This document shows positions 6,065 to 30,189 of a stretch of DNA of 32,000 nucleotides, one piece after another. Position numbers and translations under genes: made by a program. The notes under the pieces were generated by a model. That model was not told the origin of the DNA and did no database searches. It saw only the letters and a program-made list of their open reading frames with translations. The stretch covers positions 240,001 to 272,000 of the forward strand of contig JALHOH010000001.1 of NCBI GenBank assembly GCA_022843095.1, read 5' to 3'. Numbering within the stretch: the first letter of the stretch is position 1; each line of letters starts with the position of its first letter. Origin of the DNA: Candidatus Saccharimonadota bacterium. GTDB lineage: Bacteria > Patescibacteriota > Patescibacteriia > 2-12-FULL-60-25.

Positions 6065-6565
6065 TCAGGTCCCTTTAAGCAGGGCGAACAGATTATGGAG
6101 CGCGGCAAGAAACTCGGGCTCCATGGCGAGCGCCTCGTGGATGCGCTTCGGATGCTGCTCGTAGTGACGCGAAAGTTTGAGCAGCGTTTCCGTGAGTAGC
6201 TCGGAGTCTGCGCACCCAAGTTCGTTCTTGGCGAGCACGGCCAGTAGTTGAAGTGCGCGTCGATTCTGAAACGCCGCAAGCGTCACCGCCGCATTCCGCT
6301 CCTCTTCGAGCTGCGCGCAACGGGTACGAAGCGCGAGAAGCTCCGTTGACTCCTTTGTGGGGAGCGGCGGCGGCCCGGTTGCCACCGTTTTTGGGAGCGG
6401 CGGCGGCGAGGGGGGAGATCCGGTGGCCGTGATGGGTGCAACGGGTGGAGCGGGCACCTCGTTGAAGCCGCGGGTGGTGGCGCGCTTGCGCCCGGTGGGT
6501 TCTGAGCCTTTGGGCGTATCGACCACGCCCCATTTGCTGCCAGAATCACTCGATTTCTTCTCCAT
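6065..6565 (-). CDS. hypothetical protein (166 aa): Pro-rich N-terminal half, helical C-terminal half
   Basis: I chose the MEKKSSDSG start (complement of 6563-6565), which has GGAGG 6 nt upstream. The sequence contains PPSPPPLP and PPPLP tracts followed by a coiled-coil-like segment, LALRTRCAQLEEERNAAV. Confidence 0.55.
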   Translation of the reverse strand: MEKKSSDSGSKWGVVDTPKGSEPTGRKRATTRGFNEVPAPPVAPITATGSPPSPPPLPKTVATGPPPLPTKESTELLALRTRCAQLEEERNAAVTLAAFQNRRALQLLAVLAKNELGCADSELLTETLLKLSRHYEQHPKRIHEALAMEPEFLAALHNLFALLKGT

Positions 6566-6651
6566 GAAAACCTCCAAGGTCCTCCCTATAGATAAGGAGA
6601 AAAAAGGGACAATTGTCAATACTCCCCGAGGCTTGGTACCGTGCCATCACT

Positions 6652-9195
6652 ATGGCGCATCGCCCGATTCATGACATTGAACACAAGTGGCAAGAGGTGT
6701 GGGCGTCCGAGGGGACATATCAGGCCCGCTCTGAAGCACAGGGATCCGGACAGAAGTATTACGGGTTGATTGAGTTTCCGTTTCCGTCGGGAGAGGGTCT
6801 CCACGTCGGACACCCGCGTTCCTACACCGCGATTGATGTCATGACGCGGAAGCGACGCATGCAGGGACAGAATGTCCTGTTCCCGATCGGGTTTGATGCG
6901 TTTGGGTTGCCGACGGAAAATTTTGCGATCAAGCACGGTGTAAAACCGGAAGAAGCAACAAAAAAGAACATCGCCAATTTTACCCGTCAGTTACAATCGC
7001 TCGGCCTTGGATTTGATTGGTCGCGTGTCGTGGATACGACCGATCCAAAGTACTACAAGTGGACGCAGTGGCAGTTTTTACAGTTCTTTCATGCGTGGTA
7101 CGACGAGACGGAAAAACGTGCGCGTCCGATCGCAGAGCTTCCGATTCCTCAAGACATCGTCACGCGTGGAGACGAAGCTGTGCGCGCCTATCGCGATCAG
7201 CATCGCATGGCGTACAAAGCGACAACGACGATCAATTGGTGTCCGCGGTGCAAGATTGGCTTGGCAAATGAGGAGGCGCAGGGAGGCGTGTGTGAGCGGT
7301 GTGGAAATCCCGTCGAACCACGAGAGAAAGCTCAATGGATGATCCGGATCACGAAGTACGCCGATCGCTTGATCGATGATTTAGCGACCGTGGATTATTT
7401 GGACAAAATCAAGGCGCAGCAAATCCATTGGATTGGAAAGAGCGAAGGAGCGTATGTTGATTTCGCGGTCCAAGGCACTTCAGATAAAATCACGGTCTTC
7501 ACAACGCGTCCGGATACGTTGTTTGGTGTGACGTACGTCGTAGTGGCGCCAGAGCATCCATTGCTTGCGGCGTGGATGCGGGACGGTCGTGTTCAAAACG
7601 CAGACGTAGTTGCAGCGTATCAAGAGACGGTGGCGCGTCGCGCAGAAGAAGATCGTGTGGCAGAGGGGAAGGAAAAAACGGGGGTCGCGATTGAGGGTGT
7701 TCTGGCGGTGCATCCGGTTACGGGAGAGACGGTTCCTGTCTGGACGTCGGATTATGTTCTTGGGACGTACGGGACCGGTGCGGTGATGGCGGTGCCCGCG
7801 CACGATACGCGTGACTTTGCGTTTGCAAATACGTTCGGTTTACCCCTGCGCTGGGTCGTGCGGGCGACGGATGGGGGCGTGATGTCAAACGAAACGCCTT
7901 TTGAAGAGGCGGGCATCGCCATGAACTCGGATTTCTTGAATGATCTTCCCACATGGAAAGCAAAGGACGACATGATCTCCTGGCTTGTCGAAAACAAGAA
8001 GGGGGAGAAGGCGACGACGTATAAATTGCGTGATTGGGTCTTTTCGCGTCAGCGCTATTGGGGCGAGCCCATCCCTATCATCCACTGCGCCGCCTGCGGA
8101 TACGTTCCGGTTCCGGATGCTGCCCTGCCCGTTGTGCTTCCAGAGGTCGAAGCGTATCAGCCGACGGATACCGGGGAATCGCCGCTCGCGAACATCCGCG
8201 CATGGGTCGAGGTCTCCTGTCCAACGTGTGGCGGGCCGGCAGAACGTGAAACGGATACGATGCCAAACTGGGCGGGGTCCAGCTGGTATTTTTTGCGCTA
8301 TTGCGACCCACACAATGACACGGCCTTCGCGTCTCCGGAGGCATTAACGTATTGGATGCCGGTTGATCTGTATAACGGCGGGATGGAACACACGACGTTG
8401 CACCTGTTGTACTCGCGATTCTGGTATAAGTTTTTGTGGGACATGGGGCATATTCCGGCGTCGTGCGGAAGCGAGCCTTATGCGAAACGCCGTTCCCATG
8501 GGTTGATCCTTGCGGAAGGGGGAGAAAAAATGTCCAAATCCAAAGGAAACGTGGTAAATCCGGATGAAGTGGTGGCGCAATATGGGGCGGATGTTTTTCG
8601 CGTGTACGAAATGTTCATGGGCCCATTTGATCAGGCGGTGCCATGGGATACGAACGGGATCGAAGGGGTAAAGCGATTCTTGGAAAAAGTGTGGTCGGTT
8701 CTGTCGTCGGACGCCACGCATTCCGATGCGCTGGAAACGGTGTATCATCAAACGCTAAAAAAACTGACGGATGGAATCGAGTTGATGCAGTTCAATACCT
8801 GCGTTTCACAGCTCATGATCCTCACGAACGCTTATCAGGATGCGCAAGGAGTTCCGGCATCCCATCGGGAAGGATATGTGCAGATGCTCGCGCCTTTTGC
8901 TCCGCACCTTGCAGAAGAGCTCTGGCGTGGCGTGCTTGGAAAAACGACGTCCGTGCATGGTTGTGGCGCGGGATGGCCGGTTTATGATCCTGAAAAGACA
9001 ATCGCCGCCACCTTTGAATTGGTGATTCAGGTGAATGGCAAGGTGCGAGATAAAGTGGTTGCGGCATCGGATGTCAGTGAAGAAGAGGCGATTCGGTTGG
9101 CGTTAGATTCAGCGACCATCCAAAAATATCTGGAAGGACGGAATCCGGTGCAAACGCGGTACGTCAAAGGTCGATTGGTCAATATCGTCGTGTAG
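6652..9195 (+). CDS. leuS: leucyl-tRNA synthetase
   Basis: Start chosen at MAHRPIHDIEHKWQEVW, the typical LeuRS N-terminus. HIGH-type motif HVGHPRSY, KMSKSKGN motif, and CPRC/CERC zinc-knuckle cysteines are present. 847 aa. Confidence 0.95.
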   Translation: MAHRPIHDIEHKWQEVWASEGTYQARSEAQGSGQKYYGLIEFPFPSGEGLHVGHPRSYTAIDVMTRKRRMQGQNVLFPIGFDAFGLPTENFAIKHGVKPEEATKKNIANFTRQLQSLGLGFDWSRVVDTTDPKYYKWTQWQFLQFFHAWYDETEKRARPIAELPIPQDIVTRGDEAVRAYRDQHRMAYKATTTINWCPRCKIGLANEEAQGGVCERCGNPVEPREKAQWMIRITKYADRLIDDLATVDYLDKIKAQQIHWIGKSEGAYVDFAVQGTSDKITVFTTRPDTLFGVTYVVVAPEHPLLAAWMRDGRVQNADVVAAYQETVARRAEEDRVAEGKEKTGVAIEGVLAVHPVTGETVPVWTSDYVLGTYGTGAVMAVPAHDTRDFAFANTFGLPLRWVVRATDGGVMSNETPFEEAGIAMNSDFLNDLPTWKAKDDMISWLVENKKGEKATTYKLRDWVFSRQRYWGEPIPIIHCAACGYVPVPDAALPVVLPEVEAYQPTDTGESPLANIRAWVEVSCPTCGGPAERETDTMPNWAGSSWYFLRYCDPHNDTAFASPEALTYWMPVDLYNGGMEHTTLHLLYSRFWYKFLWDMGHIPASCGSEPYAKRRSHGLILAEGGEKMSKSKGNVVNPDEVVAQYGADVFRVYEMFMGPFDQAVPWDTNGIEGVKRFLEKVWSVLSSDATHSDALETVYHQTLKKLTDGIELMQFNTCVSQLMILTNAYQDAQGVPASHREGYVQMLAPFAPHLAEELWRGVLGKTTSVHGCGAGWPVYDPEKTIAATFELVIQVNGKVRDKVVAASDVSEEEAIRLALDSATIQKYLEGRNPVQTRYVKGRLVNIVV

Positions 9196-10142: not shown

Positions 10143-11546
10143 ATGCGCGTCTCTTTTTTCAAACCCCTCGTGGCCGCGGTGCTTTCGCTTTCCCTGTTTG
10201 GTCAGGGGTGTACCAAGGCATTGAGTGAAGAGACGATCTCCGCCTCGCGGTTCATGGAATTGAATGTCTGGGGGGTGATTGATGATCTCCCGGTGTATGA
10301 ACCCGTGTTCTCTGCGTATCAGAAGCAGCATCCAAACATTCAGATCAATTATCGTGCGTTTCGGTTAGAGGAATACGAAGACGCGCTCCTGAACGCGCTC
10401 GCCGAAGATCGTGGTCCGGATGTGTTTTTGATCCATCACACCTGGGTTGGAAAGTACCAGCCCAAACTGGATCCAATGCCGGCGTCCACAAAGGTGGCGT
10501 ATCGTGTCCTTGCGCAGGGGATCAAGCAAGAATTGACCTGGGAATTGCGTACCGAGCCGAACATCACCATGCGGCAGTTCCGTGATGCGTATGCGGACGC
10601 TGTTTTGACCGACATGATCCGCAATATCAATGTCGGGACGGCAGACAAGCCGGATTATCAGGATCGGATCATGGGGATTCCGATCGCGATGGATACACTG
10701 GCGTTGTACTACAACAAAGATCTGTTGAACGCGGCGAATATCCCAACGCCTCCCGAAAATTGGACGCAGTTTTTTGAACACGTAAAGCGCTTGGTCAAAG
10801 CATCTCCAGAAGGAAAGATTTTGCAGGCCGCGGCAGGGATCGGAACCTCGAGAAACGTTGAACGCGGAATCGATTTGTTGCAGGTGCTCATGGTCCAAAA
10901 CGGGACAGAAATGACCAGTAGCGATGGTCGCGTTGCCTTTCATGTCATGCCGCAGACCCTCGCGGATCGGGATGTACCACCAGGAGAACGGGCGCTTGAG
11001 TTCTACACGGACTTCGCGAATTCGGCGAAGGAGGTGTACACCTGGAATGCCGACATGCCGAATTCGCTCGAAGCGTTCATTTTGGGGCAAACGGCTTATT
11101 TCTTTGGCTACGCCTACCATTACGACATCATCAAAGCGCGCAGTCCGCGGCTGAACCTTGGGATCAGTAAGTTGCCGCAAATTAATGAGCAGGCCAAGAA
11201 CAAACCAAACTACTGGGCGTTTGCCGTGTCCAAGAAGTCGAAGCGAAAAGACTATGCCTGGAACCTGTTAAACTTCATGCAGCAACCAGATCAGGCAAAG
11301 GTGATCCTCGAAAACAAGAAAGCGCCGGCAGCACGGAAGGCGTTGCTCTCGGCCCAGTTGGAAGATGAGCGCGTGGGGGTGTTTGCCTCGCAGGTCCTGA
11401 CCGCAGTGTCCTGGTACACGGGGAAAGATCCAGCAACGATGGAGGCGGCATTCCGTGAGTTGATCGATGCGGCGAACGCGGGACAAATCGAGTTCGCTCG
11501 CATCATGCGAACGGCGGCAGAAAAGGTGACGCAAACATATTACTAA
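10143..11546 (+). CDS. ABC-transporter extracellular solute-binding protein (family 1, sugar-type), with a signal peptide and Cys23
   Basis: Signal MRVSFFKPLVAAVLSLSLFGQGC. The length (467 aa) and sequence are typical of carbohydrate-binding SBPs (WGVIDD.., DVFLIHHTW, YYNKDLL, PENWTQF). No permease or ATPase gene is adjacent. Confidence 0.8.
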   Translation: MRVSFFKPLVAAVLSLSLFGQGCTKALSEETISASRFMELNVWGVIDDLPVYEPVFSAYQKQHPNIQINYRAFRLEEYEDALLNALAEDRGPDVFLIHHTWVGKYQPKLDPMPASTKVAYRVLAQGIKQELTWELRTEPNITMRQFRDAYADAVLTDMIRNINVGTADKPDYQDRIMGIPIAMDTLALYYNKDLLNAANIPTPPENWTQFFEHVKRLVKASPEGKILQAAAGIGTSRNVERGIDLLQVLMVQNGTEMTSSDGRVAFHVMPQTLADRDVPPGERALEFYTDFANSAKEVYTWNADMPNSLEAFILGQTAYFFGYAYHYDIIKARSPRLNLGISKLPQINEQAKNKPNYWAFAVSKKSKRKDYAWNLLNFMQQPDQAKVILENKKAPAARKALLSAQLEDERVGVFASQVLTAVSWYTGKDPATMEAAFRELIDAANAGQIEFARIMRTAAEKVTQTYY

Positions 11547-11549
11547 AAA

Positions 11550-11574
11550 GAAGGGCATACGCCCTTCTTTTTTC
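11550..11574 (+). terminator. intrinsic terminator after the SBP gene
   Basis: Stem GAAGGGC, loop ATAC, stem GCCCTTC, then TTTTTTC. Confidence 0.75.
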
Positions 11575-11579: not shown

Positions 11580-11588
11580 TGCTATACT
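11580..11588 (+). promoter_or_regulatory. extended -10 promoter TGcTATACT for the pilin-like array
   Basis: TATACT at 11583-11588 lies 11 nt upstream of the ATG at 11600, directly after a terminator. Confidence 0.5.
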
Positions 11589-11599
11589 AGCCGTGTTCC

Positions 11600-13462
11600 A
11601 TGACGCCACTTCGTGTTCACGTATCTCTCCTTATGAAATCCGCGTGGTTCACCGCGATCGGTGCTCTTTGTGCCGCGTTTGTGTTCATCGTGAGCGCCTC
11701 CACGGCGGCTGCGCAATCGGCGTGCATTTATTCCTGCACGAACGGGTCCTCGACGCAGGCGCTGGTGGCGGATTGCGGAACCTGCAAAGCCACCTGCTTT
11801 GCGGGCTGTGCAGGTACGACCGGCGCAAAACCGGCGGCCGGATGTTACGCCTGGCGGTGTGGTACGCAGTCCGAACAACCGAATGGCGACAACTGTCCGG
11901 TGAACCTGTTGAATCAAACGCTTCCGGCAAACATGGGGGATACGGCGGCTGCTATCCAAGATCGTGCCTCAACGCGTCAGGTCCCGACCGGAATGTTTTC
12001 GTGCCGCACGCCGTTGGATGCGGCGGATCAGGGGCAGAATTGTTTGTCACAATCCGTGTGTGGGGGCGGACGTCAGTGCTGTGTGCCGAACGATCGTCGA
12101 ACCTGTGCCCAGGTGCTCGAGGCGACCGCCGCACCGGGATCGTTGACCAGCGTGCGCGACGAACTCACACGCATCGAACGTAGTACCAACACGAATCGTT
12201 CGCAGTTTTATTGTCAGAACCCCCCACGTGATTCCGCGAATCATCGCTGTTATAACCTTGCAACGCCGAACGGATGTCCCGGGCAGGCCGGCGCAAAATG
12301 CTGTGCCCCAGAAGACGCCATCGGTGGTCTTGCGTGCGGAACGGCGGCCGGAGGGGCGGTTGCTTCTCAGGTGACGCAACTGCAGGATCGTTCGCGTACA
12401 CAAGCGAACGAATGGTATTGCCAGCTTGCGCTTGCAAGCAAAGGTATCAACGCCTCGGAGCACTGCCTTGCTACCAACACGTTGTGCCGTGGACAGTACA
12501 AATGCTGCGTGACGCCGGAAGCCCGCACCGCGATGGGATCATCTGCGGGATTGCCCCCGACGACGTCCTGTGTGGAGCGTGCCGCGCGCATGGGGAATCG
12601 GGGTGATGTGGAAGGCGCGGCGGATCTTATCTTGCAACAGGCAAAACAGGCGGCCGGAAATCCGGCAGGTTTTGATGCGCAGTACACGCGTGCCACCGGA
12701 TTTGAATGTTTGCGTGCCTGTATTCCAGCGGATACGCAGCGTTTTTGCGTGGGTGGAGGGAATGGGTGTGATGGCGCCGGCGTGCAGTGTTGTCTGACAA
12801 CGGCGTTTTCACGGTTGCAGGTGGCGACCCCGCAAAATGTCTGTCCCGCAGGAACGACGGGCGGATCCACAACCGGCGGCGCGGGAACGGGCGGAGCCGG
12901 AACGGGAGCGCCGTCCGCAGGGGGTCGTGCCGGAGAGTCTTCTCCGGGCGTTACGGGCCGATTGGTGTTGCCCTCGTGCATCCAAAGTGGAAACTGCGAA
13001 CTGAGTGATATTTTGCGCACCGGTGCCTCGTTTGCGAATTTTATCTTCGAATTGTCCGGCGCCATTTTCCTGCTCATGTTTGTGGTGGGCGGGATCATGT
13101 ATCTGCTCGCAGGTGTGGATTCCAGTTATCCGAAAAAGGGGAAGGAGTTTATTGTGACGAGTGCGATCGGGATGATCATCATTTTTGGTGCCGCCGCGAT
13201 CGTGCGGTATGTGTATGGGACGTTGACGCAGCGCGCCGATCCAACCGAATCCACCTGCGAACGCCAATTTGCGGCAGAAGGGTTCCGCTGCAGCTATGTC
13301 CCCGGAACAACCGCTCAGGAGATTGCACAATCCGTGGACCAGATGGGATGCAAGTCTGAATTGAATTTGTGTAATTTGGACGGACAGGATCGCAATATCC
13401 GGTGCTGCCCGACGTATGGATCCGGTGAACCAACCGGAACGCGTCCTCCCGCAACACGTTAA
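11600..13462 (+). CDS. Cys-rich surface protein (620 aa) with a VirB2/TrbC-like two-helix membrane hairpin near the C-terminus (array member A)
   Basis: Signal peptide ..MKSAWFTAIGALCAAFVFIVSASTAAAQ (alternative start 11633). About 430 aa of Cys-rich ectodomain, then a Gly/Thr linker. The hairpin FANFIFELSGAIFLLMFVVGGIMYLLAG-VDSSYPKKGKEF-IVTSAIGMIIIFGAAAIVRYV is homologous to the C-termini of the next five genes. One further Cys-rich unit follows the hairpin. Confidence 0.75.
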   Translation: MTPLRVHVSLLMKSAWFTAIGALCAAFVFIVSASTAAAQSACIYSCTNGSSTQALVADCGTCKATCFAGCAGTTGAKPAAGCYAWRCGTQSEQPNGDNCPVNLLNQTLPANMGDTAAAIQDRASTRQVPTGMFSCRTPLDAADQGQNCLSQSVCGGGRQCCVPNDRRTCAQVLEATAAPGSLTSVRDELTRIERSTNTNRSQFYCQNPPRDSANHRCYNLATPNGCPGQAGAKCCAPEDAIGGLACGTAAGGAVASQVTQLQDRSRTQANEWYCQLALASKGINASEHCLATNTLCRGQYKCCVTPEARTAMGSSAGLPPTTSCVERAARMGNRGDVEGAADLILQQAKQAAGNPAGFDAQYTRATGFECLRACIPADTQRFCVGGGNGCDGAGVQCCLTTAFSRLQVATPQNVCPAGTTGGSTTGGAGTGGAGTGAPSAGGRAGESSPGVTGRLVLPSCIQSGNCELSDILRTGASFANFIFELSGAIFLLMFVVGGIMYLLAGVDSSYPKKGKEFIVTSAIGMIIIFGAAAIVRYVYGTLTQRADPTESTCERQFAAEGFRCSYVPGTTAQEIAQSVDQMGCKSELNLCNLDGQDRNIRCCPTYGSGEPTGTRPPATR

Positions 13463-13472
13463 TGACTGCTTT

Positions 13473-14324
13473 ATGACATTTCGCGCCTCAATCTTGTGGA
13501 ATGTGGTGATCGGTGTGTTTGCGATGATCGTTGGAGGACTGGGAATGTTTCCATCATCTGCCGCGGCGCAGGTTGCGCCATCCGTGTGCGTGGCTGTTTG
13601 TACAAATGGATACGCCTACACCAATAAGGGCACGTCAGCACCATCCTGTCGTACGTGGATGGATTGTTCTGCGTTTTGTCGTGCACAATGCAGAAATACC
13701 GATCGCGCCTGTGATCGGCAGGGTGGTTCTTCGATCGGTCCGGACGTTGCGGGAACGCCGGAAGGGGTCCGGTGCGTCATCGATCGTCCAACGGTTGTCC
13801 CAGAATCAGTGACCGGGACGCGTGGCACCTGTGGGTACCAATGTATCGGTGGTTTTGCGGATAGTCTGCCAAGCAATACGCCACAGGTTGTGCAGCAATG
13901 TGTGGGAGATAATTGGTGTCAGGATTTGTGCCACATCACCTGTGCCGCGCAGGCAACGGCACGTTGTGCGGGAACGGCGCCGCGGTGTATCGCGACTCCG
14001 GGGCGTCCAACGTCGACCGTTTCTGGTGGAACCGGTGGAAGCGCGGGAACGTCTGCGCGATTGGATAATCCGCTGGGTGTGACAACCTGGCAGGGTCTGA
14101 TTGGAAAACTGATTCGCGCGTTGATTGGGGTCGCCGGTTCGATCGCGCTGGCAGCGTTTGTCTGGGGTGGGGTGTTGTACATGACCGCACGTGGAGAAAA
14201 AGATCAGCTTAAACAGGCAAGAGAAATATTGGTCAACGCCGTCATTGGGCTTGTCCTGATTTTCTTTTCGTACAGTATCATCGCCACCTTTTTGAACATC
14301 TTTACGACGACGGCAACGTCGTAG
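13473..14324 (+). CDS. Cys-rich surface protein (283 aa) with a C-terminal VirB2/TrbC-like hairpin (array member B)
   Basis: Start chosen at MTFRASILWNVVIGVFAMIVGGLGMFPSSAAAQ (signal peptide). Two Cys modules. C-terminus: LIRALIGVAGSIALAAFVWGGVLYMTARGEKDQLKQAREILVNAVIGLVLIFFSYSII. Confidence 0.75.
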   Translation: MTFRASILWNVVIGVFAMIVGGLGMFPSSAAAQVAPSVCVAVCTNGYAYTNKGTSAPSCRTWMDCSAFCRAQCRNTDRACDRQGGSSIGPDVAGTPEGVRCVIDRPTVVPESVTGTRGTCGYQCIGGFADSLPSNTPQVVQQCVGDNWCQDLCHITCAAQATARCAGTAPRCIATPGRPTSTVSGGTGGSAGTSARLDNPLGVTTWQGLIGKLIRALIGVAGSIALAAFVWGGVLYMTARGEKDQLKQAREILVNAVIGLVLIFFSYSIIATFLNIFTTTATS

Positions 14325-14330
14325 CGCGTT

Positions 14331-15344
14331 ATGTTATTCTCCTCCATTCGTCAGGGGATCATCGTGGTTGCCCTCGCGTTGTCACCCGTGCTGGTTCAGG
14401 CGCAAGCCGCCCCGGCTCGTGATCCATTCGAGACGGTCCAGGCGCAAAATTATTGCGTGTTTCGATGTGATACGGGTTCCGCGTCCGGTTCCGCCTCAGA
14501 AGAATATGGAAAGTGGCATGCAGAGGCCATGCCGCAAGATCAGTGTCGGCCAAATTGCAGCACGCGGTGTGATTCAGTCTGTGGACAAGTGACGGTGCAG
14601 GCACCGGGTTCCACCTCGCGCACCACCGCACCGACGCGTCGAGGACAGCCGCGCACGAGTGGCGGAACGGCGGCAGCGCCCGAACAAACCACGGCGCGCT
14701 GTTCACTGAATTCAGGAACAAACACCAACTTGTCGCCGATCTGTGTAAATTACGATCCAATCGGTCAGGCGCAATCAGCACAATCATCAGGCGGACAGGT
14801 TTCGGGAACGCCGGGGATTTGTGTGTTTCGCTGTGCAGGGCAAACGAATTGGCAGGCCGCGCAAATGAATCAGTGCAATCCGCAAGGGTGTCAGTCGCGG
14901 TGTAATTTGATCTGTGGAGGAACGGCCTGCACGGCCGAATCCGCCATGTGTCAGCCATTGCCTGGGGTCGGAAGTCCGAGTTTTCCGCAAACAACGACCG
15001 GCCCGCAAGGAGGATCTGCCCCTTCCGATCAAACCCAGGCGCGCCAAGCGCAGTCACTTGGATTTGGGTTACGTGATCCGCTGGGCGGCGTTTCAATACA
15101 ACGTTTAATTGCCGGACTCATTCGCTTCGTGATCGGGATGATCGGCGCGTTATTCTTGGGATTGTTTGTGTGGTCGGGTGTCCAATGGATGACGGCCGGA
15201 GGCGAGGCGGACAAGGTGAGTGAAGCAAAGCAAACCATGGTGAATGCGACGATCGGGATGATTATCGTCATCGGTGCGTGGACGCTTGTAAGCCTTGTGA
15301 TCGACTATTCCAATGAGGTGTTACGCGCGTCGCAAGGGGGATAA
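14331..15344 (+). CDS. Cys-rich surface protein (337 aa) with a C-terminal VirB2/TrbC-like hairpin (array member C)
   Basis: Signal MLFSSIRQGIIVVALALSPVLVQAQA. Two Cys modules, each beginning CVFRC. C-terminus: LIRFVIGMIGALFLGLFVWSGVQWMTAGGEADKVSEAKQTMVNATIGMIIVIGAWTLV. Confidence 0.75.
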   Translation: MLFSSIRQGIIVVALALSPVLVQAQAAPARDPFETVQAQNYCVFRCDTGSASGSASEEYGKWHAEAMPQDQCRPNCSTRCDSVCGQVTVQAPGSTSRTTAPTRRGQPRTSGGTAAAPEQTTARCSLNSGTNTNLSPICVNYDPIGQAQSAQSSGGQVSGTPGICVFRCAGQTNWQAAQMNQCNPQGCQSRCNLICGGTACTAESAMCQPLPGVGSPSFPQTTTGPQGGSAPSDQTQARQAQSLGFGLRDPLGGVSIQRLIAGLIRFVIGMIGALFLGLFVWSGVQWMTAGGEADKVSEAKQTMVNATIGMIIVIGAWTLVSLVIDYSNEVLRASQGG

Positions 15345-15376
15345 GAATCCGTGTAAGTGTGTGTGTATGGAAAGTG

Positions 15377-15385
15377 TGGTATACT
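15377..15385 (+). promoter_or_regulatory. extended -10 promoter TGgTATACT internal to the array
   Basis: TATACT at 15380-15385. Downstream is a ~45-nt leader ending in the strong Shine-Dalgarno sequence AAAGGAGGTG (15418-15428), 7 nt before the ATG at 15435. Confidence 0.55.
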
Positions 15386-15434
15386 CAGATCACCCAACTA
15401 TGGGATTCCACATGCAGAAAGGAGGTGAGCATTC

Positions 15435-15845
15435 ATGACAGCTCGTATGAAGCAGTTGGTCGGATTTGCCGCCTCCTTGGGGTTATCCCTTTCGATGGCG
15501 ATGCCGGCCATCACGCACGCAGCACTTTCGCAATCCGAAGCCGATAAGGTGTTCGGTATTAGCGCGGTACAAGACAGCGGTTTGAAGCTCGGAGCTGGTG
15601 ACGTTCGCGCAACCGCGGGACGCATCATCAACGTCGCGCTCGGATTCCTCGGAATCATCGCCGTCGTTATCGTTCTTGTTGGTGGGTTCAAGTACATGGT
15701 GTCCGGTGGCAGTGAAGAAAAGACGCAAGAAGCGCGCAACTTGATTTTCGCTGGGGTCATTGGTCTCGCGATCATCTTGTCCGCCTGGGCAATCACGCAG
15801 TTTGTGATCCGCCAATTGATCGACGCCACGCAGAACGCCAGTTAA
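15435..15845 (+). CDS. small VirB2/TrbC-like (T4SS pilin-like) protein, 136 aa (array member D)
   Basis: Signal peptide ..SLSMAMPAITHA, a short mature N-terminus, then IINVALGFLGIIAVVIVLVGGFKYMVSGGSEEKTQEARNLIFAGVIGLAIILSAWAITQFV. It has the best Shine-Dalgarno sequence in the window. Confidence 0.8.
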   Translation: MTARMKQLVGFAASLGLSLSMAMPAITHAALSQSEADKVFGISAVQDSGLKLGAGDVRATAGRIINVALGFLGIIAVVIVLVGGFKYMVSGGSEEKTQEARNLIFAGVIGLAIILSAWAITQFVIRQLIDATQNAS

Positions 15846-15856
15846 TTCTCCATCCC

Positions 15857-16339
15857 ATGAGATTTCGCTTCCGCCAGTTTTTGGCACTCTCCGTTGTCGC
15901 GGCCCTTTGGGTGCCGCAGCTTGCGTTTGCACAGGCGACAGGTGGTACGGCGCCGGCACCGGCGCGGGCGTCAATTACGACCGCGAACACGGGGCTTGAT
16001 GCCGCCGCCGCGAACACGGGTCTTTCCAATGCGTGCCAAGGTGCGCAGGGGTCAGCCTGTGTCGCGCGGATCATGGGCGGCCTCATCAACATTGTGTTGA
16101 GCTTGGTCGGCTTTCTGCTCCTCTTTTATCTGTTGTACGGTGGCATCCTTTGGATGACTTCCGGCGGCGATACGGAGGGGGTGCAAAAGGCAAAAACCAT
16201 GATTCAGAACGCCGTCGTCGGAATGATTATTCTGGGCGCGTCGTTTGCCATCTCCAGTTTCGTGCTGTCGCAACTCGCGACGGCGTTTGGAGAGCCCGCT
16301 GCTTCGGCACCCGAGGCACCGGCCTCTCCGGGACCGTAA
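15857..16339 (+). CDS. small VirB2/TrbC-like (T4SS pilin-like) protein, 160 aa (array member E)
   Basis: Signal MRFRFRQFLALSVVAALWVPQLAFA. Hairpin: LINIVLSLVGFLLLFYLLYGGILWMTSGGDTEGVQKAKTMIQNAVVGMIILGASFAISSFV. The tail is Ala/Pro-rich. Confidence 0.8.
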   Translation: MRFRFRQFLALSVVAALWVPQLAFAQATGGTAPAPARASITTANTGLDAAAANTGLSNACQGAQGSACVARIMGGLINIVLSLVGFLLLFYLLYGGILWMTSGGDTEGVQKAKTMIQNAVVGMIILGASFAISSFVLSQLATAFGEPAASAPEAPASPGP

Positions 16340-16361
16340 TTCTTAAGGGATTATTTCGTGT

Positions 16362-16754
16362 ATGAAGCATCTGAAGACGTCGCTCGCATCCGCCTCGGCA
16401 TTCGTGCTCGGCGTTGCGGCACCGGCGGTTACATTGGCGGCGGGCAATCCGTTCACCAAGGCCGGCCAGTATTCGTCCGACATCAAGACGGCGTCTGGCG
16501 TGCAGGGCTCGGATAACTTGACCCAGATCATCGGCAACATCATCAACGTGTTGCTTGGGTTCTTGGGGATCTTGCTCTTGGCCTACATGTTGTACGCCGG
16601 TTTCCTCTGGATGACGGCCATGGGCGATTCCGACAAAGTGGATGAAGCCAAGACGATCATCAAGAACGCGGTCGTCGGTCTCATCATCATCGCCGCGGCC
16701 TTCGCCATCAGCAACTTCGTGTTGCAGCAATTGGTGACGGTCACGGGTGCGTAA
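16362..16754 (+). CDS. small VirB2/TrbC-like (T4SS pilin-like) protein, 130 aa (array member F)
   Basis: Signal MKHLKTSLASASAFVLGVAAPAVTLA. Hairpin: IINVLLGFLGILLLAYMLYAGFLWMTAMGDSDKVDEAKTIIKNAVVGLIIIAAAFAISNFV. Confidence 0.8.
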   Translation: MKHLKTSLASASAFVLGVAAPAVTLAAGNPFTKAGQYSSDIKTASGVQGSDNLTQIIGNIINVLLGFLGILLLAYMLYAGFLWMTAMGDSDKVDEAKTIIKNAVVGLIIIAAAFAISNFVLQQLVTVTGA

Positions 16755-16779
16755 CCCGTTCGCTGCGCAGCGAAGCATA

Positions 16780-16811
16780 CGATCCTCGGCAACGGGGATC
16801 GTTTGTTTTTT
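16780..16811 (+). terminator. intrinsic terminator ending the pilin-like array
   Basis: Stem CGATCCTC pairs with GGGGATCG (8 bp, one G-U pair), loop GGCAAC, then TTTGTTTTTT. Confidence 0.7.
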
Positions 16812-16816: not shown

Positions 16817-16846
16817 TGAAAACCCCCTCTGTCGTACCAGAGGGGG
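16817..16846 (-). terminator. intrinsic terminator for the convergent lipoprotein gene
   Basis: Stem CCCCCTCTG (16823-16831) pairs with CAGAGGGGG (16838-16846). On the minus strand TTTTC follows. Confidence 0.6.
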
Positions 16847-16879
16847 TGTTCGCGTCTCTCGGTGTGAGAGACGCAGAGT

Positions 16880-17752
16880 TCAGTACCCGCAGACGTGTGT
16901 CACACCTGCGGGGGTGGTGCTTCCTTGCGCTTCGGTCGTATACGATCCCATCGGGACGTACTGACCGACCGCGTTCCGGAGGAAGCACTGGAACGTGAGG
17001 CTGACACGTCGGCCGGTCATGTTCTCGACCCAGCCGTCGTATCCGAAGGTGTTTGCGGGGTTGCCCGGAGGGGCGCCCCACATCACGTTCCCGAATGCGT
17101 CGGTGATGCCGAGCGGGATACCGCCCTGCATCGGGATCGCGCGTCCGTTCGTGAGCACCGCGACCACGTACTGTGGTCCGATGCGCAAGCGGAGCGGGAT
17201 TTGCGTCACCTGCGTCGGGTCCGGGGGACCCAGCTGGATCTGTCCGACCGGCGCGAGCCCCATCGGGTTCACGCGGCCGAGAAATACCTGCTGCTGCGGG
17301 GGCATTTGGTTGCCCATCGGCATCATGCCGCTGGTCCACGCCTGCGACCCAGGCGGCACGTGTGCCGCCTGCTGCGCCGTGGGCTGCGCATCCTGCGCTG
17401 CCGTGCGCGTCTCTCGACGCGGGAGACGCGGGGCGCTCTCGCCGAGCGATCCGCACCCCTCTGCCGGAATGAGCGCGCGAAGCTCTTCGCATCGCGCGCC
17501 CTGGCACTGGCGCCCCGCCCGCTCGTCGAACCCCGCTTGCGCGAGGTAGCAGGCGCGGACGAGGTTGCTTTGCAGCAACTGCTCGTTCGTCCGCGCCTCC
17601 TCGTCGGCGCGACGAGTCGCCTCGACCAAGCGATCCGGGGAGATGGACTCCCTGGACTCCGTGGTCGGCAGCGTCGCGTTGCCGTTACTGCCCGCACCCG
17701 TCGTGGCGCAGGCGGTGAAGAACAAGAATGCGAGAACCAGGATCGTCTTCAT
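16880..17752 (-). CDS. hypothetical lipoprotein (290 aa) with a Gln/Pro/Met-rich central segment
   Basis: MKTILVLAFLFFTAC is a lipoprotein-type signal (Cys15). The central segment reads SGMMPMGNQMPPQQQVFLGRVNPMG. I recognise no family. The opposite-strand ORF of similar length is Arg-rich nonsense. Confidence 0.6.
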   Translation of the reverse strand: MKTILVLAFLFFTACATTGAGSNGNATLPTTESRESISPDRLVEATRRADEEARTNEQLLQSNLVRACYLAQAGFDERAGRQCQGARCEELRALIPAEGCGSLGESAPRLPRRETRTAAQDAQPTAQQAAHVPPGSQAWTSGMMPMGNQMPPQQQVFLGRVNPMGLAPVGQIQLGPPDPTQVTQIPLRLRIGPQYVVAVLTNGRAIPMQGGIPLGITDAFGNVMWGAPPGNPANTFGYDGWVENMTGRRVSLTFQCFLRNAVGQYVPMGSYTTEAQGSTTPAGVTHVCGY

Positions 17753-17823
17753 TGAACAAAACTTTCTGGGAGCATTGAGGCAGCTCCCTCGCCATATTTT
17801 TGGTTTTGGAAGCTGTGTTACGG

Positions 17824-18621
17824 CTAACGTCGCGGGCGGCGTGAGTGGCGCATCAGGGTGGTGATGTCGCCACGGAGGCGTTGGACTTCTTGCTCCAACG
17901 CGCTGCCACCGGACGAACCCGGCACGTACGCGCCGCCCGTTCCGGACGACACGTTACCGACCACGAACGTGGTCCGGTACCCCATGACGGGTTGCGGCAA
18001 AAGCCCGCAGGTTCCGTCGAGGGAGGGGAGCGGCGATCCTGGGCATCCGCCCATGCCACCGAATCCGCCGTTCACGGCACCTGGCCAGCCGAAGCCGCCA
18101 GTGACCATGCCCGGCATCATGCCCATCCCGCCGAATCCGCCGAGCATCCCCATGCCCGCCCCGTTCCAGAGGAGTTGATTCCCCTGGACGGCGAACTCGC
18201 GTCCGAACTGGCTCATGAGCCAGGCGACGCAGAGCTGCTGAAGCGGCGATGCCCACGGCGCGGTCATGGTGACCGTGTCCGCGCGGGTCTGAATCCCGGA
18301 GCGGATCTGCATCCAGCTTCCGTCGTCCACGTCCAGGCACCGCTGTGCCATGGACGACCCGGTGGTATCCACGTGGGTCACGCCCCCCAGGATCCCGGAG
18401 ACCGAGGTCCCGGATCCGGACGTCGTCCGCACCGTGTTCACGTAACAGCTGCTCACGCTAAGCGCGAGCAGCGCCGTCACCACCACGAACGCGATGCGTC
18501 GCGGCAAGAGTCGCGCGCGCGGCATGCGCTGATTCAGGTGCCACCAGAGAAGAACGGCACACATGCCGTTCAGAATTGCCGCCAGGACAAACAGTCCCGC
18601 GGCGAGATGAGCACTGTTCAT
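17824..18621 (-). CDS. hypothetical membrane protein or lipoprotein (265 aa) with a Gly/Met-rich tract
   Basis: Start chosen at MNSAHLAAGLFVLAAILNG.. (a hydrophobic helix). An alternative start at the complement of 18523-18525 gives MPRARLLPRRIAFVVVTALLALSVSSC, a textbook lipoprotein signal with a VSSC lipobox. The low-complexity tract is GAGMGMLGGFGGMGMMPGMVTGGFGWPGAVNGGFGGMGGCPG. The C-terminus is basic. Confidence 0.55.
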   Translation of the reverse strand: MNSAHLAAGLFVLAAILNGMCAVLLWWHLNQRMPRARLLPRRIAFVVVTALLALSVSSCYVNTVRTTSGSGTSVSGILGGVTHVDTTGSSMAQRCLDVDDGSWMQIRSGIQTRADTVTMTAPWASPLQQLCVAWLMSQFGREFAVQGNQLLWNGAGMGMLGGFGGMGMMPGMVTGGFGWPGAVNGGFGGMGGCPGSPLPSLDGTCGLLPQPVMGYRTTFVVGNVSSGTGGAYVPGSSGGSALEQEVQRLRGDITTLMRHSRRPRR

Positions 18622-18821
18622 GACGTCTCGCTTTCCGGGGCGTTTGCCCCAGGGTTGTTGATTGTCGAAGACCGGAATCCATCTGAGAAACACTCCCAGT
18701 AGGAACGTCGTAGCATACCCGAAAACGGGGATTTTGTCAAGCGTCTCACCACGCCTGTTTTGCCTAAAACTAGAAGAACTTTGTCCTTTTTTGGTTGTTT
18801 TACAGAAAATGTTCAGCACGA

Positions 18822-18850
18822 TTGACAAAATTGCTGTTTTTTGCTATGTT
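18822..18850 (+). promoter_or_regulatory. sigma70-type promoter for the 18944/19946 gene pair
   Basis: TTGACA (18822-18827), a 17-nt spacer, then TATGTT (18845-18850). This is the closest match to the -35/-10 consensus in the window. Confidence 0.55.
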
Positions 18851-18912
18851 CAAACGTCTTCTGGCGACCAGGTGTTGCCAGAAGGCCCAACGTATTTTCA
18901 CAACACACACGT

Positions 18913-18933
18913 TGGCGCCATCGCATGGCGCCA
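18913..18933 (+). promoter_or_regulatory. twin palindromic octamers TGGCGCCA-tcgca-TGGCGCCA (operator-like site or 5'-UTR hairpin)
   Basis: Two exact copies of a self-complementary 8-mer, 13 bp centre to centre. The second copy ends where the Shine-Dalgarno AGGAG (18933-18937) of the ATG at 18944 begins, sharing one A. Confidence 0.4.
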
Positions 18934-18943
18934 GGAGAAAAAG

Positions 18944-19930
18944 ATGGCCAAAAAAAATGGTGATGGGGGTGAGGGAAGCGATTCCCTCTCCGGCGATGTC
19001 GGCCGGGTCGTGATGCGTGTGCTGATGAAACAGCTCGTGTCGCGTCTTTCCGGCGGGTGGACCAAGGATGGATCGATCGTGAAGGATGTATTCACGGCGG
19101 GCATCCCGGAGCTCATCGGCTGGAGTGATAGCTCCGAAGGGGCGCTGCAGGGGGCGGTCGAAGCCTCCTACGAACCCATTCGAGCAAAGCTTTTCAACCG
19201 ATGGGCGCAGGTCGCCAAGACCCGTGGCATTTCACCAGACGAGCCGCTCAAGATCACGGACATCGACCTCCTCGCAGGGGACGATGCGTTGATCAAGAGC
19301 ATCACCGGAGTCATCCGCGACAAGTACGCGGAACTTCGGAAGGAGCAGCTGTCGAATCCTACGCTGGCCCGGCTGGAGAAACTGCTTGGATCGCGTCTAA
19401 AGGTCGTTTGGCGCGCCTACAAGACCTACCTGAAGGATCCGTCCGATGCGGACGTGGATCCGAAGGGCGAGAAGACGCCCGACGAACGCGCGGAGGCCAA
19501 GAAGGAGCTGAAAAGCCGATATGACGAGATCGTCAAAGGCGAGCAGAAGGTTTCCTTCGGTCAGGTGGAGGCGTTTCTCGATCGGTTCCTCGATGACGGT
19601 GACGTAGCCGCGCTGCGAAAGGCGCTGAACAACGTCATCAAGTTCAAAGAAGAACCGAAAGGTAAAGCTGCCTTCGAATCCTTGACCGGGATCAAGGTGA
19701 AGGATCTCCAGAGCGACCCGGGGAAGGTGCTGAAGAATGTGTTCGGTGGCGGCAAAGCCGCAGCCGCGACACGTGAGCTCAAGCACGCGGCCCAGCGTTC
19801 TGACGAGTATTCTCGTCGGTACGCGATCGAGAAAAGCGCGGGGCCGATGGCGCCGGCGCACGAAGAAGATGATCTTCGTGCGCGGTTCTGGCTCGTGCGT
19901 CTCTGGCGCTGGTTGAAAAACCTTTTTTAG
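18944..19930 (+). CDS. hypothetical Lys/Glu-rich helical protein (328 aa) with a C-terminal amphipathic Trp/Arg/Leu helix
   Basis: Start chosen at MAKKNGDGGEG, with AGGAG 6 nt upstream. The track ORF's upstream 94 aa span the promoter. The C-terminus is RARFWLVRLWRWLKNLF. I recognise no family. Confidence 0.6.
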   Translation: MAKKNGDGGEGSDSLSGDVGRVVMRVLMKQLVSRLSGGWTKDGSIVKDVFTAGIPELIGWSDSSEGALQGAVEASYEPIRAKLFNRWAQVAKTRGISPDEPLKITDIDLLAGDDALIKSITGVIRDKYAELRKEQLSNPTLARLEKLLGSRLKVVWRAYKTYLKDPSDADVDPKGEKTPDERAEAKKELKSRYDEIVKGEQKVSFGQVEAFLDRFLDDGDVAALRKALNNVIKFKEEPKGKAAFESLTGIKVKDLQSDPGKVLKNVFGGGKAAAATRELKHAAQRSDEYSRRYAIEKSAGPMAPAHEEDDLRARFWLVRLWRWLKNLF

Positions 19931-19945
19931 GTCAAGGAGAAGAAG

Positions 19946-22030
19946 ATGGCAGACGATAAAAAGCAGAATGCGGCGGACGCCCTCATGGATTGGGTGCCGC
20001 CGATCGCGGGTGCAGCAGCACTCGCGACGAATGCGGAGCTTCGGAACGGCATCGCGCTGTTCCGCAACGCGGGGGTTGGCGCCCTCGTCGAGTTCAAGGG
20101 CAAATGCGAGCGCTGGGTGTGGTGGAACGCCACGGCCCTTGCGCGCGCCTTCGCGAACGCTACGCACATCGCGGCGTGGGTGCTGATTCTGGCAGACGTG
20201 TTCGGCCAATACGCAGCGCTCATGGGGACGCATGGCGTCCGCATGCCGGGGGTGTTGTGGGGGGTGCCGCTCGCGGCGCTCCTCCTCAACATCTTCTGCG
20301 TAATCCTTCCCATCTGGTGGGTGATCCACCGGACCATGGGCACGGAAGCCATTCCGTGGTCGTGGGAGCTCACGGCTGATCTCGCCTTCCCGGCGCGAGA
20401 AGACGCAGAGACTGATGTGGTCTTTGCGCAGCGTCTGCGTGCGCAAGTGCAAGCCTTGCGTGGGCGGATCTGCACGCTCGCACTCGATCTCGCGATCGAC
20501 CCTCGGCGGCGCGTGTGGCGACAGAATGTCGTCACGTGGCTCCAGGGGGAGATCATGCGTCTCGATCCGGCTCTGGCTCCGCCCTTGCCGGTGAATGCGC
20601 CGACGGTCGAAGACGTCGAGCGGTTCACTACGGCGGCGCAGCGTGCGTGGGCGCTACACACGACGACTGCGAGCGATCAGCAGGCACTCGACCTCCTGGA
20701 GGTCGAGCGGGTTGCGCTTGGGCGTCGGCTTCGGCTGATGCACGATGACGCGACGCGTCGCCAGTTTGGCGAACGGGGAAACCCGCTTCTCGCCATGGCG
20801 GTGCTGATCTGCGCCGTCACGGCAAAGGGGGTGCTCGCCATGGAGTGGCGTTCACTCGTCCTGAACTACGTCTGCGATGTGCAGGCGTTGACCTCAGTGA
20901 TCCCGTGGCTCGTGGGGATGGGGGCGCTCGTCCTCTTCTTCATCCTCGGAAAAACGACGGTGGTCGCGATTCATCTGCTGGCATCTGCCGCGGATGCGAT
21001 CGGGATGACTGCGACCGAGTTCTTCCGGGGCCTCGCGGTGGCAGCACCTGGGATCACCTCGGAGAACGTCGACAGCAAGCTTCCGAAGGTCGATTGGAAG
21101 ATCAATCTCATCACCTTCAAATGGGAGTTGATCTTCGACGAGATCTGGTACGCTGGAATCGGCGCAGGGATGATCGTGCTGCATGCGGTGTCGCCGCTTT
21201 GGAGCACGGGAATCTTCGTCCTCGGGATCGGCTCGTCGCTCGGTGTCTATCTGCTGAAGAAGCGAGGCATCGATGTTCTGGGCAAGGAGCAGAATCGAGC
21301 ACATGCGCTGTATTGGATCTTCGGGATCCTGGCAGGCGCGCTCGTATTCTTCTCCCTGCTGAACATGACCTTCGGCTGGTGGACGCGTCCGACGTTTACC
21401 GGTGCGATGGTGGCACTCCAGGGCGGGGAACTGCTCTGGGTCGCGGGAAGCGACATCCTCAAGCTCCTCGCGTTTCCGTTCGTCGGGATCGCGATCGTGC
21501 TTGCGACCCTCGGGATGTGGTTCTTCACGCTCGGGTGGCTCGGTTTCTTTCTCGTGGGCTTTGTCCTCGCGGTTCTTCTCTTCCAACTGGGGCATTGGAG
21601 CCCGGAAGGGAACGCGCGGTGGCTGAAGTACGCGGGGATGACGCTCGCCGGTCTCGCGATGCTCGTCTTGATCGGCGGGCGTGCGCAGCAGATCGACGGA
21701 CGTTCGCTCACGGAGCGCAGTCGGATGGTGGGGGTTGCGTCGGGAGCGATTCCCGCGCCGCCTCCGCCGTCGACCCCTCCGGATGATCAGCGCGGACCGA
21801 TTCGTCACGCGTGGGATCGCATGATGGGAACGGCGCCCTGGATCAACTGGGGATCGTCGTCTTCCGGAAGCGATACCCGTGCGGTGTCGTCTGCGCCGGC
21901 GGCGACCCTGTCGTCGTCACGGCATTCGCAGGAGCGCTACTATCGCCCGGACGAGAATCCTCCCTGCGAGGACCTCGACGGTGACGAAGAGTATCGCGCC
22001 ATGATTCGGCGCAACGGGATGTGTCACTAA
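19946..22030 (+). CDS. hypothetical polytopic membrane protein (694 aa, ~10 predicted TM helices, ~150-aa soluble Arg/Leu-rich insert, Pro/Ser-rich tail)
   Basis: AAGGAG lies 7 nt upstream of the ATG, and the start is 15 nt after the previous stop. There are many long hydrophobic runs (e.g. VLWGVPLAALLLNIFCVILPIWWVI, LLAFPFVGIAIVLATLGMWFFTLGWLGFFLVGFVLAVLLF). The tail contains APPPPSTPP. I recognise no family. Confidence 0.7.
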   Translation: MADDKKQNAADALMDWVPPIAGAAALATNAELRNGIALFRNAGVGALVEFKGKCERWVWWNATALARAFANATHIAAWVLILADVFGQYAALMGTHGVRMPGVLWGVPLAALLLNIFCVILPIWWVIHRTMGTEAIPWSWELTADLAFPAREDAETDVVFAQRLRAQVQALRGRICTLALDLAIDPRRRVWRQNVVTWLQGEIMRLDPALAPPLPVNAPTVEDVERFTTAAQRAWALHTTTASDQQALDLLEVERVALGRRLRLMHDDATRRQFGERGNPLLAMAVLICAVTAKGVLAMEWRSLVLNYVCDVQALTSVIPWLVGMGALVLFFILGKTTVVAIHLLASAADAIGMTATEFFRGLAVAAPGITSENVDSKLPKVDWKINLITFKWELIFDEIWYAGIGAGMIVLHAVSPLWSTGIFVLGIGSSLGVYLLKKRGIDVLGKEQNRAHALYWIFGILAGALVFFSLLNMTFGWWTRPTFTGAMVALQGGELLWVAGSDILKLLAFPFVGIAIVLATLGMWFFTLGWLGFFLVGFVLAVLLFQLGHWSPEGNARWLKYAGMTLAGLAMLVLIGGRAQQIDGRSLTERSRMVGVASGAIPAPPPPSTPPDDQRGPIRHAWDRMMGTAPWINWGSSSSGSDTRAVSSAPAATLSSSRHSQERYYRPDENPPCEDLDGDEEYRAMIRRNGMCH

Positions 22031-24068: not shown

Positions 24069-24156
24069 AAAACATCCCGCATGTCGCGGGGTGTTTTTGT
24101 AATCCAGCGTTATTCCCAAAATAGGAACAGGTGCGTTATACTTGTTTCAACTCTGT

Positions 24157-26231: not shown

Positions 26232-26252
26232 GGGCGAGCCACCTGTTCGGTG

Positions 26253-26261
26253 TGCTATACT
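26253..26261 (+). promoter_or_regulatory. extended -10 promoter TGcTATACT 6 nt upstream of the pilC ATG
   Basis: TATACT at 26256-26261 and ATG at 26268, with no Shine-Dalgarno sequence. This implies a leaderless start. Confidence 0.5.
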
Positions 26262-26267
26262 GACCGC

Positions 26268-27780: not shown

Positions 27781-27798
27781 GCGTCGTCATCAAAGATT

Positions 27799-27807
27799 TG
27801 GTATACT
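27799..27807 (+). promoter_or_regulatory. extended -10 promoter TGgTATACT 6 nt upstream of the ATG at 27814
   Basis: TATACT at 27802-27807, with no Shine-Dalgarno sequence. Confidence 0.5.
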
Positions 27808-27813
27808 GACCCT

Positions 27814-29758: not shown

Positions 29759-29761
29759 ATG

Positions 29762-29770: not shown

Positions 29771-29778
29771 GTGCCCGG

Positions 29779-30186: not shown

Positions 30187-30189
30187 TGT

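Follow-up and report, generated by a model that had tools for sequence, protein, structure and literature searches.

We found that six consecutive genes, here A to F, in a 32,000-nt stretch of DNA from an ultra-small Patescibacteria bacterium, Candidatus Saccharimonadota (assembly GCA_022843095.1, contig JALHOH010000001.1, forward-strand positions 240,001 to 272,000; the whole stretch is hereafter the window) encode proteins of the T4SS_pilin family (PF18895; T4SS, type IV secretion system), and that three of them, A to C, join large Cys-rich ectodomains to the helical hairpin of that family. The assignment to PF18895 is secure at the level of sequence profiles. Beyond it, we judge the chances to be about even that the six together make up a heteromeric pilus of the VirB2 (T4SS) type, or a pilus-like surface structure, with A to C as adhesin-bearing minor pilins. 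Patescibacteria depend on host cells, and the locus provides testable candidates for the host-binding adhesins that their T4SS seem to lack: three members of the pilin family whose outer domains evolve fast and are stabilised by disulphides, kept together with three plain pilins in an unchanging order.

The six proteins share a T4SS_pilin hairpin

The first-pass annotation of this DNA, made from the letters and translations, had described six consecutive same-strand genes for VirB2/TrbC-like pilins and had pointed to T4SS_pilin as a family of candidate phyla radiation (CPR) genomes. The genes are present as described (Table 1), and every one of the six proteins has a match to PF18895 (E = 3e-10 to 2e-5). 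Scores lie above the gathering cut-off of 26.6 bits for five (A 29.1 at aa 477-538, B 33.8, C 33.8, D 35.9 and F 40.3) and slightly under it, at 25.1 bits, for E; among the short orthologues tested from related loci, 24/24 match, E-types among them. Each protein begins with a hydrophobic segment that has an AxA-type site at its end, and hydropathy places two more hydrophobic helices after it. A hidden Markov model (HMM) built only from D, E, F and their orthologues detects the hairpin in A (E = 1.7e-11), B (2.8e-18) and C (9.6e-23). Hence, the shared module is real and not a chance likeness. The signal peptide and common module first read from the translations therefore stand for all six, whereas the C-terminal position ascribed to the module does not hold for A, in which 75 aa follow the hairpin.

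The predicted fold agrees. AlphaFold2 (AF2) gave a two-helix hairpin in both A and B at a predicted local distance difference test (pLDDT) score of 81-90, as had been expected from the translations; the helices span aa 468-505 and 510-543 in A, and aa 206-238 and 243-282 in B (pLDDT 86-90). The NCBIfam model NF045849 (Mbov_0395 pilin-like conjugal transfer protein, cut-off 40) matches F above its cut-off (48.6 bits) and D (38.5), E (27.2), C (25.4) and B (18.5) below it, with no match to A.

Relatedness to VirB2/TrbC was addressed with PF04956, which matches the same residues in the right register in B (24.2 bits, E = 4e-5), A (19.0) and C (14.9), gives no match to D, E or F, and at E < 0.01 matches 2/24 short orthologues. 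Some CPR relatives match both families, among them P0022 (TrbC 51 bits) and the proteins P0159 and P0163, for which PF04956 matches are precomputed. When 24 CPR short pilins were aligned by hhalign with three annotated VirB2/TrbC proteins from MPF_T plasmids, the signal-peptide end and helix 1 fell in register over 56 columns (E = 8.7e-4, probability 23%). This profile likeness is suggestive, not decisive.

The possibility that the six are type IV pilus (T4P) pilins was rejected, as none of them matches the N_methyl motif (PF07963), whereas the real T4P pilin of the window (31271-31735) has it.

Cys-rich modules flank the hairpin of A

Protein A consists of a signal peptide (aa 1-39), a Cys-rich ectodomain with 34 Cys (aa 40-455), a CX5C loop (aa 460-466), the VirB2-like hairpin (aa 468-545) and the 75-aa tail, which is predicted to face outward and holds a 6-Cys module (aa 553-603). 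B and C each have a signal peptide, a 16-Cys ectodomain, a four-residue motif and a C-terminal hairpin (aa 203-283 in B, aa 255-337 in C); the motif is NPLG in B and DPLG in C, the latter being NPLG in most orthologues. Among the short pilins, E has one conserved Cys pair, which the alignment places immediately ahead of helix 1.

Cys totals in the open reading frames (ORFs) are 43 in A, 17 in B (302-aa ORF) and 16 in C; the mature outward-facing segments have even numbers throughout (A 36 + 6, B 16, C 16, E 2), and there are 0 Cys in all six hairpins. Two kinds of module recur. The first, CX3C...CX3-5CX3CX3C, has one copy in A and two each in B and C; it takes the form CX3C...CX3CX3C in A and B and CX3C...CX3CX3CX3C in C, where low-complexity linkers accompany it. 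The second, aromatic-x-C...C...C...CC, has four copies ahead of the hairpin of A and a fifth in its tail. AF2 models the last pre-hairpin copy as beta-alpha-beta (pLDDT ~80) and the tail (pLDDT 91-95) as a helix plus beta-alpha-beta, and an HMM made from the tails of 80 homologues also detects N-terminal modules (e.g. in P0017, E = 1.8e-5). A homologous disulphide-rich module thus stands on both sides of the hairpin. Hence, there is direct sequence evidence that both ends of A lie outside the cell, which is the topology of VirB2; the even Cys numbers in outward-facing segments and the Cys-free hairpins point the same way. Known folds were not recognised in the Cys-rich parts, with no Pfam or NCBIfam match outside the hairpin and no PDB sequence match.

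Gene order and membership are fixed across related loci

The closest relative is a syntenic Logan contig (L003), which has six genes in the same order. One-to-one orthologues are 42% (A), 45% (B), 45% (C), 69% (D), 51% (E) and 56% (F) identical, and paralogues within the array 20-45%. Between the two loci the ectodomains are 31-34% identical and the hairpins 55-77%, and the Cys are kept at 39/43 positions in A (orthologue P0002, 42% identity), 12/16 in B and 16/16 in C (C2). Recent tandem duplication was rejected as the origin of the array, since there are no long inter-gene DNA repeats and the paralogues predate the species split.

Scanning one genome per species with seven close A-type hairpins yielded 18 related loci, mostly in metagenome-assembled genomes (MAGs) of Candidatus Uhrbacteria or other Patescibacteria; the Uhrbacteria-like lineage is GTDB class ABY1 in Table S1 of PMC12102498. 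Every locus with enough flank (14/14) holds the array, made up of an A-type gene, two genes for Cys-rich proteins with C-terminal hairpins, and three short genes, so the co-occurrence of long Cys-rich members with short ones, raised earlier as a question, is seen in all of them. The array has six members in 12 of the 14 loci and seven in L020, and the L019 contig stops after the fifth. The A-type gene encodes a post-hairpin tail with 6-12 Cys (mostly six) in 13/14 loci.

When the hairpins alone were classified, most of the 14 loci showed the order A-B-C-D-E-F. The hairpin of D is 74-82% identical across them and those of the other five about 42-60%, making D the most conserved member of the array, while the ectodomains of B and C are too divergent in length and sequence to be aligned across the clade. 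Three architectural classes are fixed: A; B and C; and D to F. Hence, one-to-one orthology, fixed order and the three fixed architectures are evidence against interchangeable antigenic variants, and the fixed order argues for a multi-subunit structure over spare variants, at least in ABY1.

Seven of the related loci (L004, L005, L014, L016 and L019-L021) come from third-party annotation MAGs that have the operon and its synteny but whose records bear the title 'uncultured Gammaproteobacteria bacterium', probably a mislabelling.

The array is bounded by terminators and appears to have two promoters

The boundaries first proposed, a terminator-promoter pair ahead of the genes and a terminator behind them, were recovered (Table 1). 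The upstream hairpin is the predicted intrinsic terminator of the solute-binding-protein gene and divides that gene from the pilin operon. The motif TGNTATACT, to which the promoter-like elements relate, has five copies in the window, all on the + strand, vs 0.08 expected. At the position equivalent to the internal element, a -10-like element lies 5' of the D orthologue in 13/14 sequences examined, window included; it is TGNTATACT in most loci and a one-base variant in a few. The ribosome-binding site of D is as strictly kept, the version in L021 being GAAAGGGGGTGA; the 25 nt 5' of A, B, C, E or F show no AGGAGG-type site. These signals suggest polycistronic expression of the operon from two promoters.

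Gene A has two candidate starts, ATG 11600 and ATG 11633 (Met12). The orthologue alignment begins at Met12, and a Shine-Dalgarno sequence is absent at both candidates. As ATG 11600 lies only 12 nt past the -10-like element, its use would give a near-leaderless transcript. Just 3' of the operon terminator lies another strong hairpin (16822-16847, -20.3 kcal/mol), which is followed by a T-run on the - strand and therefore probably terminates the convergent gene at 16880-17752.

Table 1. Features of the pilin operon and its boundaries (window positions; aa, amino acids)
Feature	Position	Strand	Remarks
Solute-binding lipoprotein (SBP_bac_1), orphan	10143-11546	+	lipobox-like GQGC; directly 5' of gene A
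Upstream terminator hairpin	11545-11572	+	-17 kcal/mol; z = -5.6; 0/200 shuffles as good; T-run after
Extended -10 promoter-like element	11580-11588	+	TGCTATACT; 12 nt upstream of gene A ATG
Pilin operon, genes A to F	11600-16754	+	six consecutive ORFs
Gene A	11600-13462	+	620 aa; possible true start 11633
Hairpin of A	13001-13234		not C-terminal
6-Cys module in tail of A	13256-13408		
Gene B	13473-14324	+	283 aa from ATG 13473; mechanical ORF from 13416 (302 aa)
Hairpin of B	14079-14321		
Gene C	14331-15344	+	337 aa
Hairpin of C	15093-15341		
Internal extended -10 promoter-like element	15377-15385	+	TGGTATACT; in 90-nt C-D gap; motif enrichment
Gene D ribosome-binding site	15417-15428	+	GAAAGGAGGTGA; identical in 13/14 sequences examined
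Gene D	15435-15845	+	136 aa; short pilin without Cys
Gene E	15857-16339	+	160 aa; short pilin; Pro/Ala-rich tail
Gene F	16362-16754	+	130 aa; short pilin without Cys
Operon terminator	16775-16806	+	10-bp stem; T-run; -19.4 kcal/mol; z = -6.9

The hairpin-plus-ectodomain architecture is widespread

An exhaustive profile search with A and its orthologue against 1.84 billion cluster representatives gave 7,757 matches at E <= 1e-3 and 481 at E <= 1e-10. Word-indexed searches were poor: A found itself and one other, C found itself and one weak match, and the B/C profile had six matches. Among the top matches retrieved from the exhaustive search, the hairpin is present in 148 of 149, and 121 have a length of 200 aa or more; at least six Cys precede the hairpin in 114 of the 148, and a tail with exactly six Cys follows it in 80. 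Nineteen top matches are 820-1,012 aa long, all except P0022 with 59-70 Cys, and homologues reach 845 aa and 62 Cys ahead of the hairpin. In the long proteins tested there is no other Pfam domain, and most score under the PF18895 cut-off. Hence, by its sequence signature, the Cys-rich pilin architecture is one that recurs in hundreds of unannotated protein clusters; many of these long relatives are missed by cut-off-based annotation, so that censuses probably undercount them.

Two further arrangements were seen among the relatives. P0022 (820 aa) is Cys-free, has eight tandem T4SS_pilin domains in a single polypeptide (223 bits), also scores above the TrbC cut-off and looks like a poly-pilin. 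A contig of another Patescibacteria lineage with 43% G+C (L022:1324-12808; GCA_021733565.1, JAKFZD010000033.1) has an 11-gene cluster with ten hairpin proteins. One of its genes (1660-2304) encodes two tandem hairpins; another (6094-8220) encodes a 708-aa protein in which the hairpin (aa 81-156) is followed by about 550 aa of PKD repeats; and a gene for a 1,003-aa PKD protein without hairpin adjoins the hairpin genes. The PKD repeat is an adhesin-type fold.

Comparison with known systems

The tandem pilin array and its copy number are already known, because both arrays of 2-11 genes and a six-pilin array in Southlakia have been published. A survey of 3,035 Patescibacteria genomes, with PF18895 and PF04956 among its profiles, found 441 arrays in 383 assemblies, each with 2-11 pilin genes that lie in tandem or have one non-pilin gene between them; mean within-array identity was 25%, and a pilin gene lay near virB4 in 1,135/1,948 assemblies (Quinonero-Coronel et al. 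2025, PMC12102498). The window array fits this definition, with six adjacent pilin genes and Patescibacteria relatives. In the sole genetic study of a member of the phylum, the T4SS of Southlakia epibionticum ML1 and the pilin series in its cluster proved essential to epibiotic growth (Wang et al. 2023, PMC10633639), and a 2025 review describes the series as six VirB2-like pilins (PMC12857230). Hence, the copy number is not unusual, contrary to what the first-pass annotation had supposed.

The Cys-rich grafts on A to C, also held to be unusual, fared differently. They are real, and pilin-ectodomain fusions are not mentioned in the literature searched, in which VirB2 is treated as a small protein and adhesins are stated not to have been detected (PMC12102498, PMC10633639, PMC12857230); as architectures they are widespread, not unique to the window. 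Three things appear to be undescribed: pilins that bear ectodomains, a module that occurs on either side of the hairpin, and a six-gene operon that is fixed across a clade and uncoupled from virB4.

The published Patescibacteria arrays, Southlakia included, share PF18895, the phylum, a monoderm cell and tandem divergent paralogues with the window array, and that of Southlakia also its number of six. They differ in that the window array lies away from virB4, beside genes for leucyl-tRNA synthetase (LeuRS), a nucleotidyltransferase-type enzyme (NTP-transferase) and a solute-binding protein (SBP); that its order and membership are fixed across its clade; and that three members have Cys-rich ectodomains of 160-420 aa, one of them with a post-hairpin module as well. 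Diderm VirB2, TrbC and TraA (Agrobacterium T-pilus, RP4 TrbC, F-pilus; PF04956) resemble the six in having a long signal peptide, a pair of hydrophobic helices joined by a short charged loop and outward-facing ends, and show weak profile similarity to them in the same register. In contrast to them, the window proteins score below the PF04956 cut-off, come from a monoderm host and include large ectodomain fusions, and several co-conserved paralogues stand here where one major pilin stands there.

Mbov_0395 and MMCAP2_0565 of Mycoplasma integrative and conjugative elements (ICEs; NF045849) are likewise two-helix proteins, of ~80 aa and from a wall-less or monoderm T4SS. They are single-copy, without ectodomains and encoded in an ICE beside conjugation genes, unlike the window locus, which has no mobile-element hallmarks. 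For the role proposed for A to C (low-copy, conferring binding specificity on a filament or channel), VirB5, TraG-type tip proteins, the Gram-positive T4SS adhesin PrgB and the T4P minor pilins/PilY1 are functional analogues. No sequence or fold relationship links them to A to C, whose adhesive domain would be fused to a pilin hairpin and not a separate protein.

A candidate heteromeric pilus and its rivals

In the heteromeric pilus that we propose for this Uhrbacteria-like (class ABY1) Patescibacteria cell, Sec would export each protein and the signal peptide would be cleaved, after which each would insert into the membrane as a hairpin of helices, its two ends outside the cell and its short loop, rich in G/D/E/K, in the cytoplasm. 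D is the candidate major shaft subunit, possibly with E and F, because no other member is as conserved and because a promoter-like element of its own and the sole strong ribosome-binding site precede it. A, B and C would be low-abundance minor pilins whose hairpins co-assemble with the shaft, displaying their fast-evolving disulphide-rich ectodomains on the outside or at the tip, where they may bind the host-cell surface. Membrane extraction and polymerisation would be driven by a T4SS of the VirB4 type whose genes lie elsewhere in the genome.

Several results weigh against such a pilus. None of the six reaches the PF04956 gathering cut-off of 27.9 bits. A sequence-profile search of the PDB gave nothing significant, and Foldseek with the A model gave nothing at E < 1 and generic helical hairpins only, amid which the conjugative pilin 8dfu of Aeropyrum pernix ranked seventh (E = 2.7). 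The B ectodomain is modelled at pLDDT < 50, and neither it nor that of C yielded a usable fold. As the first reading had noted for VirB4 and VirD4 ATPases, no Pfam match to VirB4, VirD4, VirB6 or VirB3 was found in the window; nor was any found in 10 large downstream ORFs scanned in four related loci, or in the 10 kb on either side of the array in the eight related loci whose flanks are complete. Two array-bearing genomes, GCA_001791275.1 (L009) and GCA_002786495.1 (L007), are listed as VirB4-positive in Table S1 of PMC12102498, and no VirB4 was found in the flanks fetched around their arrays. Hence, the T4SS link depends on family membership and literature statistics. Moreover, a VirB2-type pilus has never been seen on a Patescibacteria cell and is given only as a possibility (PMC12857230), and a 416-aa ectodomain on every subunit would be unfit for a tight pilus, so that A to C are assumed to be only sparse or terminal.

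Some of these points lend weight to the main rival, which we regard as possible though rather doubtful: that the hairpin is a mere membrane anchor, with A to C as cell-surface adhesins or coat proteins retained in the cytoplasmic membrane and D to F as their small membrane partners, and with no polymer and no T4SS. Such anchors would need no T4SS genes near the array in any related locus and no visible pilus, and would readily carry ectodomains that are hard to pack in one, such as those of 845 aa with 62 Cys or of PKD repeats. They would, however, leave unexplained why three ectodomain-free members are strictly conserved and why D combines the top conservation with the strongest expression signals. 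They also sit poorly with a family that is statistically tied to virB4 elsewhere in the phylum and whose Southlakia arrays are essential within a T4SS locus (PMC12102498, PMC10633639).

Unlikely in our view is that the six are alternative, interchangeable major pilins for antigenic variation or host-range switching, an idea put forward for Patescibacteria arrays in general from the example of VirB2 paralogues in Bartonella and Anaplasma. The divergence of the paralogues (20-45% identity, in line with the mean of 25% in arrays generally; PMC12102498) and the fast evolution of the ectodomains would suit such variants, but positional one-to-one orthologues in L003 and most of the 14 loci, the three fixed architectural classes, the lack of near-identical DNA repeats to drive recombination, and expression that is apparently polycistronic from two promoters and not one gene at a time all speak against them. 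Still less likely is a T4SS-unrelated pore of oligomerised hairpins, perhaps taking up host solutes with the orphan SBP lipoprotein: this gene lies directly 5' of the A-type gene in the window and 17 related loci, no ABC permease or ATPase partner for it is present among the window ORFs scanned, and the hairpin has weak matches to small membrane-protein families, but those matches are far under the family cut-offs, the SBP gene has its own strong terminator, the L022 array of another lineage has no SBP, and the family-level evidence is for pilins.

Returning to the heteromeric pilus, we tentatively extend it to a wider proposal, which we consider possible though rather doubtful: the VirB2-type hairpin may be a general display module in Patescibacteria, carrying disulphide-rich or PKD domains at either end, the operon would encode a heteromeric filament of fixed composition, and its three adhesin-pilins would be the missing host-recognition determinants of the epibiotic T4SS. 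If this is true, conjugative-type pilins with a built-in binding domain would form a pilus-subunit class of a new kind.

Neighbouring genes

Upstream of the array, the synteny of LeuRS, NTP-transferase and the orphan SBP_bac_1 lipoprotein is kept in up to 17 loci, and in the loci with full 10-kb flanks the upstream neighbours are housekeeping genes. The downstream genes of the related loci are variable orphan ORFs (ORFans). In the window, four ORFans form a block (16880-22030) with a G+C content of 60-67% vs about 56% elsewhere, encoding a 290-aa lipoprotein (-), a 334-aa Gly/Met-rich membrane protein (-), a 422-aa Lys/Glu-rich protein (+) and a 694-aa polytopic membrane protein (+). The block has no Pfam or NCBIfam match and no BLAST counterpart in the related loci, and may be a lineage-specific insertion. 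The first-pass annotation had suggested it as the assembly machinery of the pilins; this was rejected, as the downstream ORFans have no family matches and are not conserved in related loci. The only downstream family that is conserved, in eight related loci, is a polytopic membrane protein of ~540 aa without Pfam match, encoded 3' of the array (e.g. L017:12347-13978, immediately downstream of the array, L011:17608-19221 and six more loci); it is absent from the window.

Further downstream, on the + strand at 24142-31735, the window has a T4P cluster with genes for a response regulator, a PilB-type ATPase (T2SSE), PilC (T2SSF), an LVIVD-repeat protein, PilM and the N_methyl pilin already mentioned. 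This T4P machine is distinct from the T4SS-type pilins of the array. Further copies of the promoter-like motif TGNTATACT lie within the T4P cluster at 26253 and 27799.

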